DNA of 64,000 nt from Escherichia coli (lineage in GTDB: Bacteria > Pseudomonadota > Gammaproteobacteria > Enterobacterales > Enterobacteriaceae). This document shows, in pieces, positions 1-3,000 of the stretch. The number at the start of each line of letters is the position of its first letter. Positions within the stretch are counted from its first letter, which is position 1. The stretch is from the NCBI RefSeq assembly GCF_044324785.1, contig NZ_CP172127.1; one strand, 5' to 3'. A program made the position numbers.

Positions 1-3000
1 TTCATTACATCACTCCGGTGAATACAAATCTAATAAAGCGTCCAATGTTATTTCCGGAGCACTTCATCTTACATGTTTCTAAAGAATCATTAGACCAGTC
101 AGGGCAAGATTACGAAAGCCCGCTCCCCGCAAGGACTGACGCGAGATAGTTTCTGTCCATGGCTGCTTTTCGCATCTTACGTCTTAACCCTGCCTTGAAT
201 ACCTTATCATTCGTCAAAATATTAATAGCAATGTGCCGTATCCCTGAAAATAATTCTGCTGCGTTTCCTCTTCTTATTTTGCAGTCGTCTTCATTCATTA
301 CCACGTCCAGACGCCAGTGCAGCTTATTCTCCACGTGCCAGTGGTTTCGGATTGCTGTGGCGAACTTCTCAGCGGTTAAATCAGCAGAACTGATATAATA
401 TCTGACCGTCATTTCTGGCTCTTTCTTTTATTCTGCTATTATTGACCGAAAGGAGACTGCCACGCATAATTTTTCAGTCCTTTCTATTCAAATGTAAAAT
501 CAATAAGTTCATCAGCGACATCGCAAACAATATGAAGACGGATTTCTTCTCTGCCGTGACTCTTTTCACTAATTGCGTAACTGTCATGCTCTGGATTATT
601 TAATTCTTTCAGCGGAAATGTTTCCTCAAAGGCTTTATTCAACCGCCCCTGGTTTCCTTTTACAGCGAATAAGTAATCACCACCCTGTTTTTGTATCTTC
701 TCTGCAATATCTTTCTGGCAACCTATCGCATCAGTTGTGATGATTTTCCCTTTAATATACAAAATGTTAAGAAGTTCAGGGATAGCTGTGATCTCATTAG
801 ATTTCTCATCCGTCCTGATCTGCCCCAGGACCAGAATGTGCATTGTTGAGAACGCACTAATAACATGAATCGCTCCCCTTCGGCGACTCTTATCATAAGA
901 GTGTCGGAGCATTTTTCCATCAATTGCAATGACGTCTTTATCATCTGAAGAATGGCAGTCACGCATCCAGTTAATAAAGCACTCATGAAATTTTGCAGGG
1001 CTGATACAGGATACAACTCTGGCAATGGTATCGTGGACAGGAATACCATTTTCAAAATCACCGTATTGTTTTAAAAAATCGAGATGTGTTTCCCCAAAAT
1101 CCTCTATATCTTCCCAACCTTCTGCACCCGAAATAACGGCACAAATAGTCAACAGTAGAATATCCGATAATTTATGTTCCACTTTCCAGGCTTGTCTGTA
1201 ATCGGGGATAATAGAAATATGCTCCATCAATTTTTTAAGTTCCATTTTGTTCTCCTTAATTATGTAAGGAGTATTTGATCATGTATAAGCAATAAAAAAC
1301 AGCTTTAGGTAATGAGGAATATCTCAATTTTCAAACATAAAATGCGAATTATTTAGTACAAAAAAGCAGCGTTACGTGATCTTTCCCTGGCATGTCATTA
1401 GATGAACCAGTTATACAACCCTCGGAACAGAATCGAGGTCCTAAAGACGGACCAAAAGCGTTTAAACAACTATGTATTGAAAATCCATTACGATTATAAG
1501 TTCCTGTATTAACTGACGGTACTAATCGTATGCCGTCAGGTTTTCTATTGCTTGCTCCCGGGTCATTAACATTCCAACTCCATAGGCCTTGAGGTATTGG
1601 CCCTCTATTTATAAATGTGTACAACGGGGATTATTTTTACATTGCATATTATTACCAGAAGCGACTGGAATACTAAGCACATCATAAAAATTATCATCAC
1701 CTGGTATATCTGAAACACACGAAAGCATACCTAAAGTTATGCTGTATAAACAGGTGGCTAATCCCAAGGGGATCGATTCCAGAAATCGGGTTCAACGGAT
1801 ACTGATAAAAATTCCACCTACCTTCCAGCCCAATCGGAGCCTGAGTGTTATACCGCCCCTGCTGCGGTTAATGTTACCGATAATAGTTATAGTACAGCCC
1901 TGATTCATCATCATACTACTGCTGCGGCAGTCTGATGAATTATTGCTTTTACGGATTCTCCTTATTCTTCCTTCTATCCATTCGCTTTAGCTTTTTGAGA
2001 TCTTGAAGTTTGCTCTTTGCATCAATATTACCGTTATTTACAGCGAATTCCATCCAATAAATAGCTTTATTCAAATTATAATGTTCTGATAATATTGGAT
2101 TTGTATCCGATAAAAAAACCCCATAATTAAACTGCGCTGTAACATTCCCCTGAGATGCTGATCTTTCTAAGTATCGCAATTGTTTGTAAATGTTATTTTT
2201 AGTAAAGCAGTAATATTGATATAGTCGAAATGATGCCTCTGAATCACCATGTTGTGATTTATACTTCAGTTTCATCAACTTTTCTTCACTTAAATCATAG
2301 GTCATTGCTGTAGACCCCATCATACTTTCGTTTTGTTTTATTTTCACATCAGCACCATGCAATTGAAAAATAAAAGAAAAATAAAAAAATAGTAACAAGC
2401 ATGCTTTCATACATCTACAACCTATCTTATATCACTGGGTTTTTCTGGCGTACCTTGCATATTAGAAATGGGGTGCCCAGATGGCCCATATGTTATCCAA
2501 TTACCAAGGTCTTTTGTTGTTATAGCCATTAGATCCTTATTTGAATTAAGGTTCGTTGGTGCTGTTAGCACTGTATCCATTTTTAACTTACCATTAGTTC
2601 CTCGCCCCCACCACGTCCATAGCGTGTCAGGTCCTATTACATTTGTATGTAACTCTTTAGCTAATTGGCTAGCAAATGAATTTTGTCCTTTACCTGTATT
2701 ACAAGAAAATAACCAAACTGTCATCCCATCTTTATAATTCCCATCAAATTTAATTAGATATGCTAGATCTTTAGCTGTCATGATACTGCGCGTTGCGGAT
2801 TCAATAGATGTGGGGGTACCATGCCCCCCGATTGTGAAAACGCCTGGGATATTAATCTCATCAGCTACAGAATGGATAAGATCACTTTCGGGGTATAAAT
2901 TTATATCAACCAAACCTTGCGGATCTACATTTATGACCGGATTCAACGGATACTGATAAAAATTCCATCCCCCCTTCAGCCCAATCGGATCCTGAGTGAT

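Follow-up and report, generated by a model that had tools for sequence, protein, structure and literature searches.

The minus-strand stretch at positions 1390-1938 of the window (the whole 64,000-nt stretch of Escherichia coli DNA analysed) is very probably a dead orphan tip of an Rhs toxin, the counterpart of the K-12 pseudogenes yibS and yibW; it most likely came to this locus already dead, by block import. An earlier sequence-only reading had placed a decaying orphan rhs-CT cassette right behind the primary toxin/immunity pair. Our results support that reading: we find a core fragment, a DPxG motif and a broken, AT-rich toxin tip. The remnant is already on record: K-12 annotation lists it as yibS/yibW, and RefSeq treats it as an Rhs pseudogene ('RHS repeat-associated core domain-containing protein; internal stop; incomplete'). 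Its relevance is mostly one of annotation, and it makes a textbook case of Rhs arrays gaining and losing spare toxin tips.

Anatomy of the remnant

The remnant and its neighbours occupy the following positions in the window.

1-99, minus strand: last ~100 nt of an RhsC-type tip and first bases of ybfB, abutting the far end of the H-rpt (~99% identical to the K-12 rhsC 3' end/ybfB start; annotation of equivalent genomes)
100-1389, minus strand: H-rpt/ISAs1-family element, 1290 bp (Pfam DDE_Tnp_1_assoc and DDE_Tnp_1; alignment with the K-12 yhhI H-rpt)
1349-1624, minus strand: mechanically called 91-aa ORF with a TTG start, comprising the C-terminal toxin half and 13 IS-derived residues, PGKDHVTLLFCTK (ORF call; IS-end alignment)
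1389-1390, no strand: junction between yibW homology and H-rpt, ambiguous by 2 nt (alignments with K-12, O157:H7 and the K-12 RhsB H-rpt)
1391-1606, minus strand: C-terminal half of the toxin domain, RGPIPQG...IHSCLNAFGPSLGPRFCSEGCITGSSNDM (homologue alignment, translation)
1607-1611, minus strand: nonsense change CAA>TAA (1609-1611), then a -1 frameshift in an A-run (1607/1608) (pairwise alignment with allele L003)
1612-1767, minus strand: N-terminal half of the toxin domain, in a shifted frame (the invariant ASGNN and CKNNPxC anchor its alignment to intact homologues)
1763-1792, minus strand: PxxxxDPxG(L) motif at the boundary of Rhs core and tip (translation)
1787-1938, minus strand: what is left of the rhs core 3' end, covering the final ~50 conserved-core codons (paralogue of 2938-3089)
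1868-1918, minus strand: three in-frame nonsense codons, TAG 1916-1918, TAA 1874-1876 and TAA 1868-1870 (translation in the core register)
1949-2410, minus strand: Sel1/TPR-like protein of yibG type, the presumed immunity partner of the primary tip (~98% identical to K-12 yibG)
2422-6651, minus strand: full-length Rhs, 1409 aa (Pfam RHS_repeat, DUF6531, RHS)

The array is a mosaic of RhsA-type parts (yibJ tip, yibG, yibS/W), an H-rpt and RhsC-type parts (tip tail, ybfB). The full-length Rhs carries DPIGL at 2977-2991 and DPQGL at 2911-2925, followed by a 162-aa yibJ-type C-terminal tip (2425-2910) that is ~99% identical to the K-12 yibJ pseudogene and free of its stop codon. RefSeq names 1949-2410 yibG / SEL1-like repeat protein; the Pfam Sel1/TPR matches there are weak. 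The last downstream ORF of the array bears the RefSeq name 'RHS element protein dsORF-f3', and this name together with the mosaic structure suggests that the array may be RhsF. In a 2025 EHEC paper, 'RhsF' denotes another locus than the window array.

The 5' part of the remnant is a diverged duplicate of the rhs core end, as had been proposed. Aligning the minus strand of 1246-1960 with the rhs gene (2422-6651) by BLASTN gave a single significant match, 1787-1938 against 2938-3089, in which 121 of 152 nt are identical without gaps (79.6%, E 8e-35). The two regions named earlier for comparison are thus significantly similar at the nucleotide level; their coordinates were nearly right, the paralogous core stretch being 2938-3089 instead of 2926-3060. 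MAFFT left the register unchanged, and GC>AT changes account for 18 of the 31 substitutions. We found no further copies of the orphan core piece in the 64-kb window. Chance or low-complexity resemblance can be dismissed, given the E value, the conserved register of the orphan with the core motif, and the best ungapped score of 64/152 (mean 58) among 100 mononucleotide shuffles compared with the whole rhs gene.

Seven disabling lesions, mapped to exact positions against the better-preserved E. coli allele L003 and intact homologues, interrupt the core piece and the toxin. Translation confirmed the in-frame stops noted earlier in the core duplicate, three in number, all of which also occur in K-12 yibS and O157:H7 Sakai. 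At the core end, the motif DPxG-(18)-DPxG(L) that defines the tip start (PMC2935791) reads APIG-(18)-DPLG in the orphan: Ala replaces the first Asp (D>A), and a +1 frameshift falls inside the second motif, where GATCCCC (1768-1774) has one base more than L003. The latter reads GAC CCG TTG GGA TTA GCG (DPLGLA) in frame. The DPLGL-like motif reported after the stops is present at 1763-1792, with this frameshift inside it. Relative to L003, a 9-nt in-frame deletion at 1647/1648 removes three conserved codons of a GNN repeat; after the nonsense codon at 1609-1611, the -1 frameshift at 1607/1608 restores the original frame. The C-terminal half then runs through the predicted catalytic His (1472-1474) and Cys (1415-1417, within SEGC at 1415-1426) and loses its last ~21 codons (...QKLNELIFSEPDSTLTVTD) at the H-rpt junction.

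These lesions leave no continuous ORF for the whole toxin domain in the window. The 'short out-of-frame ORFs' of the sequence-only reading do exist; each encodes one half of the same L,D-peptidase (Tlde1-like) domain, which a +1 and a compensating -1 frameshift have broken in two. Because the stops and frameshifts recur in three independent complete assemblies that we aligned, sequencing errors are an unlikely explanation. The tip is AT-rich (GC 0.39, against 0.625 for the core), and the remnant has no start codon of its own. Scanning 1200-2500 for promoters and terminators yielded sites no more numerous than in shuffles, with the remnant's own minus strand free of them, and an Rfam search of 1-7000 at E <= 1 returned sub-threshold eukaryotic families only. 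As it would not be translatable into the domain, the remnant presumably now does nothing.

The toxin family and its probable activity

In its intact form the toxin is, as judged from intact homologues and a structural model of another allele, an L,D-transpeptidase-fold domain of the Tlde1/Tox-LD-peptidase kind at an Rhs C-terminus. The frame-repaired window toxin matches Tlde1_dom (Pfam PF10908) weakly, at 23-25 bits against a gathering score of 30.1. Five intact homologues exceed that score (P0007, 35.8; P0009, 40.0; P0015, 31.4; P0020, 35.0; P0119, 33.9), and the remaining ones fall just under it at 25-28 bits. A profile search returned 321 representative clusters, in all of which the toxin domain is C-terminal. 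Proteins of 1308-1616 aa are among them, and all four that we tested (1385-1616 aa) contain RHS repeats.

Structural modelling points to a YkuD-like L,D-transpeptidase fold for the toxin domain. The AlphaFold model of an intact E. coli allele, built from 40 sequences, reached a pLDDT of 92.4; it replaced a 7-sequence model (pLDDT 68.7) with the same fold matches. The link to Tlde1a needed this fold comparison because a toxin-only profile matched nothing in a PDB sequence search; with core residues included in the profile, the search matched the Rhs core end only. NCBIfam matched neither the primary tip nor the repaired toxin nor Imm57.

Agreement with the catalytic motif is partial. L,D-transpeptidase-type enzymes carry H-x-x14-17-(S/T)-H-G-C-h (PMC9638812); the corresponding residues in the window are H(1472-1474)-x15-S-E-G-C(1415-1417)-I. 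Across 40 homologues His, Gly and Cys never vary and Ser hardly does, whereas Glu replaces the second His of the Tlde1-type SHGC in most members of the window subfamily. The His-Cys spacing resembles that of classical YkuD (H-x15-SEGC), unlike the shortened spacing reported for Tlde1a. Compared with Tlde1/DUF2778 (PF10908) effectors, the subfamily is divergent, with several members just below the Pfam threshold, and the window copy is not a protein-coding gene.

Published relatives suggest what the intact toxin did. L,D-carboxypeptidase/exchange activity on peptidoglycan, together with periplasmic toxicity that an immunity protein neutralises, is known only for Salmonella Tlde1a (PMC9638812; 10.1101/2020.02.18.954545). 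Rhs-DUF2778 fusions and periplasmic toxicity have been described (10.1101/2020.02.18.954545; PMC9638812), as has the association of Tox-LD-peptidase, RHS and Imm57 (Zhang et al. 2012; PMC3482391). By analogy with the family, the intact toxin would have been enclosed in the Rhs shell, passed through a type VI secretion system to neighbouring bacteria and directed, in their periplasm, against peptidoglycan stem peptides, while Imm57 would have neutralised it in the producer cell. As a by-product, the yibS/yibW domain can be assigned as an L,D-peptidase toxin paired with Imm57/yibV; a literature search on yibS, yibW and yibV gave nothing relevant among the papers listed.

The H-rpt boundary and the missing immunity gene

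An insertion-sequence element stands where the toxin end and its immunity gene would be. Imm57 lies directly 3' of the toxin in Ralstonia and E. coli, and both K-12 and O157:H7 have its gene behind this very remnant. In the window, no cognate immunity gene lies directly downstream of the remnant; the H-rpt/ISAs1 element begins at 1389 instead, taking the place of Imm57 and of the final ~21 toxin codons. The sequence-only reading was right that the immunity gene is absent but put this down to lack of room, whereas the H-rpt has cut off both toxin end and Imm57. Its span of 1349-1945 likewise needs trimming, since 1349-1389 belongs to the H-rpt terminal inverted repeat and not to the cassette.

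The H-rpt is itself degenerate. Its boundaries come from comparison with the RhsB copy of K-12 and with K-12 flanking sequence, and its terminal inverted repeats, CAGGGAAAGATCACGTAACGC (100-120) and CAGGGCAAGATTACGAAAGCC (1369-1389), match at 16 of 21 positions. It encodes a DDE transposase of ISAs1 type (Pfam DDE_Tnp_1_assoc, E 3.8e-34, plus DDE_Tnp_1) and is highly identical to the K-12 yhhI H-rpt over its full length (mean column identity 92%, a figure that includes non-homologous flanks). Relative to yhhI, a TGG>TAG change and a -1 frameshift split the transposase into ORFs at 484-1245 and 110-412, and RefSeq marks it 'frameshifted'. We found no target-site duplication of a simple insertion at the H-rpt ends, and a simple insertion with target duplication at 1389/100 was rejected: the flanks are different genes, a yibW-type toxin on one side and an RhsC-type tip tail on the other. 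Because the flanks come from different genes, the H-rpt junctions reflect deletion or recombination.

Counterparts and probable history of the block

The remnant is a widespread element of E. coli Rhs loci. It is 99% identical to K-12 yibS (b4650)/yibW (b4651) of the RhsA element from the yibG stop codon to window position 1390, with 5 differences, and shares the three stops, the +1/-1 frameshifts, the 9-nt deletion and the internal TAA; O157:H7 Sakai carries the same lesions. Of 5426 complete E. coli genomes, 3685 contain its toxin-specific part; the toxin/H-rpt junction is present in 167 genomes. In both K-12 and the window the remnant directly follows yibG. The K-12 toxin frame reaches its natural end and is followed by yibV (Imm57) and, further on, an H-rpt fragment (yibU), whereas the window lacks yibV and has a complete 1290-bp H-rpt that stops the toxin 21 codons short. 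The two loci also differ in place, the window array lying beside rpmE and the K-12 one between yibF and yibH, and the yibJ-type tip, attached to the full-length Rhs in the window, is a second orphan in K-12.

These comparisons favour import of the remnant over displacement on the spot. It would have reached the rpmE-adjacent Rhs locus already dead, as the tail of a block comprising core end, yibJ-type tip, yibG and yibS/W, with the H-rpt as the distal edge of the block. The cassette had earlier been described as 'displaced'; by parsimony across a handful of genomes, the displacement probably did not happen at this locus, since the trio of yibJ-type tip, yibG and remnant recurs with identical lesions at the RhsA locus. 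The tip that the rpmE-adjacent locus has in common with other strains is another one, the 'f' tip with dsORF-f3.

Displacement in situ, in which the L,D-peptidase tip was once attached to this rhs gene, was pushed downstream by the yibJ-type tip and then decayed, is unlikely. The displacement model does predict a position immediately beyond the present tip/immunity pair (PMC2935791), and the remnant is the most decayed module of the array. Against this, the same three modules lie with identical lesions at RhsA in K-12 and in O157:H7, where the trio stands behind a 1409-aa Rhs, and the primary tip and yibG are ~99% identical to K-12 yibJ/yibG. The rpmE locus of O157:H7 holds a single Rhs whose attached tip is the 'f' tip, with dsORF-f3, and the distal orphan of the window-type array matches this attached tip at 98% identity. 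Identity between the core piece and the adjacent core is only 79.6%, whereas published associated and dissociated cores are identical (PMC2935791), and among the best matches we did not find this tip on a full-length rhs in complete E. coli genomes. Displacement in situ followed by spread to the RhsA locus may be an alternative order of events. Since the remnant travels between Rhs loci inside a larger block, array position is an unreliable record of displacement order.

A retained role for the imported remnant is very improbable, whether as an expressed 91-aa ORF with a cytoplasmic or regulatory function or through the 152-nt core patch as a recombination or transcriptional element. Roughly two thirds of the complete E. 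coli genomes retain the remnant at 98% identity or more in spite of its seven disabling lesions, a persistence compatible with such a role and equally expected from hitch-hiking beside yibG and Imm57. The ORF at 1349-1624 is not considered a gene, and we see scant prospect that it is a small expressed protein keeping the His/Cys catalytic half, possibly in a new cytoplasmic role. Ninety-one open codons do exist, some public annotations call near-identical ORFs proteins (P0003, 97 aa, 480 member sequences), and an internally expressed truncated Rhs toxin, EHEC RhsF, offers a precedent (PMC7618764). However, the ORF starts with TTG and has no promoter-like site upstream on the minus strand. It lacks the N-terminal ~55 residues, with four conserved cysteines and the ASGNN and CKNNP motifs; its last 13 residues are read from the IS end; and K-12 curators and RefSeq class the region as a pseudogene.

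Also very improbable, and contradicted by the sequence, is a latent module whose tip recombination over the 152-nt homology fuses to the full-length Rhs to deploy a second toxin, as in Salmonella LT2. The layout is that of functional orphans (PMC3150448; PMC3967940): like described orphan rhs-CT modules (Jackson et al. 2009, PMC2935791; Poole et al. 2011, PMC3150448; Koskiniemi et al. 2014, PMC3967940), the remnant shares its strand with a full-length rhs that lies upstream of it, and it has a core fragment, DPxG and an AT-rich tip but no start codon of its own. Stops and frameshifts have been described in such fragments (PMC2935791; PMC3150448), and the longest run identical to the main core is 26 nt. 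The remnant differs from the described modules in having neither a cognate immunity gene nor an intact toxin; functional orphans carry an intact, deployable tip, whereas here two frameshifts, one nonsense codon, a 9-nt (three-codon) deletion and 3' truncation have broken it and no immunity gene is adjacent. From these lesions, recombination with the main gene would not rescue the remnant. Nor is it a usable reserve, because the core piece is far more diverged than in described cases: 152 nt at 80% identity here, compared with identical cores (PMC2935791) or 95% over 522 bp in Salmonella (PMC3967940).

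Rhs array and the orphan core end

The feature is an ordinary pseudogene, already known. From the yibG stop codon to position 1390, the window is 99% identical (5 differences) to K-12 yibS (b4650) and yibW (b4651), and all stops and indels of the remnant are common to both. In matching genomes, RefSeq labels the equivalent position 'RHS repeat-associated core domain-containing protein; internal stop; incomplete'. The minus strand carries all genes of the Rhs array under discussion:

2422-6651, minus: full-length Rhs of 1409 aa, with RHS repeats, DUF6531 and RHS core-end domain
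2911-2991, minus: last stretch of the Rhs core, with DPIGL
2425-2910, minus: primary tip, 162 aa, AT-rich, directly after the Rhs core end
1949-2410, minus: Sel1/TPR-like gene yibG, 153 aa, between the primary tip and the remnant
100-1389, minus: H-rpt/ISAs1 element, 1290 bp, terminal inverted repeats 16/21, aligning over its full length with the K-12 RhsB H-rpt

Alignment confirmed a sequence-only reading of the orphan as a diverged copy of the rhs core end with in-frame stops. BLASTN of 1246-1960 against the rhs gene gave a single strong match, 1787-1938 to core positions 2938-3089 (152 nt, ungapped, 79.6% identity, E 8e-35), with 121 identities against 64/152 at best in 100 shuffles. The copy lies where that reading had placed it, and its core partner is slightly shifted, to 2938-3089. 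In the core register, the orphan has three in-frame stops (1916-1918, 1874-1876 and 1868-1870) and later ISGIDPLG. Three-frame translation places the core remnant and a 91-aa ORF (1349-1624) in one frame, with the intervening stretch open in another.

The primary tip and yibG are ~99% identical to K-12 yibJ and yibG. In the window, the yibJ-type toxin is unbroken and joined to a full-length Rhs, whereas in K-12 it is an orphan pseudogene with a CAA>TAA stop within the tip; the window keeps CAA at ~2665-2667. The primary tip had no match in Pfam or NCBIfam. Its GGHG...FSCNTGKG sequence looks like a caspase-like His/Cys dyad. In gamma-proteobacteria, Imm57 is listed beside 'Tox-Caspase' (Zhang et al. 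2012, PMC3482391), a pairing that could derive from the gene order yibJ tip, yibG, remnant, Imm57.

A broken, predicted L,D-peptidase toxin and its immunity gene

From the DPxG motif onward there are four lesions, mapped against a better-preserved E. coli allele (strain 19KM1776, locus L003) and intact homologues:

1768-1774, minus: one extra base (frameshift) within GATCCCC
1647/1648, minus: 9-nt deletion of a GNN repeat
1609-1611, minus: nonsense change, CAA>TAA
1607/1608, minus: one-base deletion in an A-run, restoring the original frame

Once frame-repaired, the toxin can be aligned over its full length to the C-terminal domains of proteins from Ralstonia, Paraburkholderia and numerous metagenomes, sharing the motifs ASGNN, CKNNPxC, GPIPxGxW, KPNG, HSC and CSEGC. 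Two N-terminal Cys, GNN, one His and one Gly-Cys are among the residues invariant across 40 sequences. Searching 1.84 billion representatives with a profile gave 321 clusters, the domain being C-terminal in all; it occurs in proteins of 1308-1616 aa, and RHS repeats were present in 4/4 tested (1385-1616 aa). Every homologue tested matches Pfam Tlde1_dom (PF10908), five of them exceeding the gathering score and the others falling just short; the repaired window toxin reaches 23-25 bits, below the cut-off of 30.1. Its predicted active-site pattern, H(1472-1474)-x15-S-E-G-C(1415-1417)-I, largely follows the published H-x-x14-17-(S/T)HGCh (PMC9638812), but most of the subfamily has Glu in place of the second His. 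The earlier designation as a degenerate orphan rhs-CT is supported, with refinements.

The 19KM1776 allele (L003 5619-6972; 87% nt identity) keeps its 135-aa tlde1 ORF open, has an undamaged core end and is detached from any full-length rhs. Among the best 40 matches, no complete E. coli genome has the toxin tip attached to a full-length rhs.

The probable cognate immunity family is Imm57. The K-12 toxin frame runs 21 codons beyond the point where the remnant is cut off (...QKLNELIFSEPDSTLTVTD) and is followed by yibV, a Pfam Imm57 protein (E 9.5e-49); in Ralstonia an Imm57 gene comes after the intact toxin, and in O157:H7 and further E. coli after the remnant. Tox-LD-peptidase has been listed with RHS repeats and the immunity proteins Imm16/Imm57 (Zhang et al. 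2012, PMC3482391), and the Tlde1 discovery preprint describes Rhs-DUF2778 fusions and the same immunity link (10.1101/2020.02.18.954545). Compared with the 173-aa Imm57 of strain CFSAN061763 (L010 813-1334), K-12 yibV (L002 8346-8681; 111 aa) has an extra A in an A-run that ends the frame early, and appears to be a truncated Imm57. The gene is frameshifted also in O157:H7 Sakai and 19KM1776. CFSAN061763, the genome most like the window (100% match at the finding), retains at RhsA an intact Imm57 of 173 aa; of the other (87%) toxin allele, only the final ~210 nt precede it (L010 1334-1703). The immunity gene survives there as an orphan whose toxin has been lost.

The H-rpt junction

The remnant indeed lacks its own immunity gene before the H-rpt, as first proposed: K-12 homology ends at 1390 and the element occupies 1389 down to 100. 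The proposed span is trimmed accordingly, since 1349-1389 is IS sequence, not cassette, and also supplies the C-terminal 13 residues of the 91-aa ORF. The other flank (1-99) comprises the final ~100 nt of an RhsC-type tip together with the start of ybfB. Simple insertion is rejected: the flanks come from different genes and the ends bear no target duplication, so deletion or recombination involving the H-rpt made the present junctions. Relative to K-12 yhhI, the transposase (110-1245, minus) is inactivated by TGG>TAG, a stop ending a 253-aa ORF at 484-486, and by a one-base deletion just past it, leaving ORFs 484-1245 and 110-412.

The 8-mer TCATTAGA (TCTAATGA on the minus strand) occurs at 87-94 and 1395-1402, exactly 5 nt beyond each H-rpt end. 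It is not a target duplication, since each copy belongs to the flanking gene itself (K-12 rhsC and yibW); its placement may be coincidence or a target or recombination preference.

Distribution, history and function

The toxin-specific part (1390-1785) is present in 3685/5426 complete E. coli genomes, in most of them at 98-99% identity, and a second allele (~87%) in 173; the window-type remnant/H-rpt junction occurs in 167. The rpmE-adjacent Rhs element is found in 2176/5426 genomes and is absent from K-12. The O157:H7 rpmE locus has just one Rhs, with dsORF-f3 after its tip. The window-type array runs from Rhs with a yibJ-type tip through yibG, the L,D-peptidase remnant and H-rpt to the RhsC-type tip tail, ybfB, a 1.5-kb core fragment with tip, dsORF-f3, IS1 and yiiX. 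Its distal orphan and the tip attached at the O157:H7 rpmE locus are 98% identical, which places the remnant between the newest tip of the locus and its older ones.

In general, the array fits the tip-displacement model (PMC2935791). The remnant's lesions are common to another locus, RhsA, in distant lineages: the O157:H7 Sakai RhsA locus (1409-aa Rhs, yibG, remnant, Imm57) has the Rhs/yibG/remnant arrangement exactly as in the window, with identical lesions. The most economical reading is that the remnant was inactivated before it reached the rpmE locus, at the trailing end of an imported block. Module order in an array is not necessarily a record of local tip displacement.

The best-supported conclusion is that the remnant has no function. 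No frame encodes the toxin domain, its strand has no start codon or promoter-like site (promoter scan of 1200-2500), and an Rfam search gave no match on it. The homology patch (152 nt at 80%, longest identical run 26 nt) compares with 522 bp at 95% identity in a functional Salmonella orphan (PMC3967940), and any recombinant with the main gene would still carry a broken toxin. Losing the immunity gene carries no cost, as the toxin cannot be made and its relatives act only in the periplasm (10.1101/2020.02.18.954545). Judging from the family, Rhs would have encapsulated the ancestral toxin, with cleavage at DPxG, T6SS delivery and attack on peptidoglycan stem peptides, and Imm57 would have neutralised it.

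Elsewhere in the window, a 637-aa ORF (57270-59183, minus) with no Pfam match lies between fdhE-like and fabY/dtd-like genes, in a low-GC stretch (0.41 for 56001-60000). Within it, GCKSAKDRT forms a CX5R motif of the kind known from SopB/IpgD-type inositol phosphatases. The equivalent CFSAN061763 interval differs, holding a transposase and a truncated hypothetical gene.
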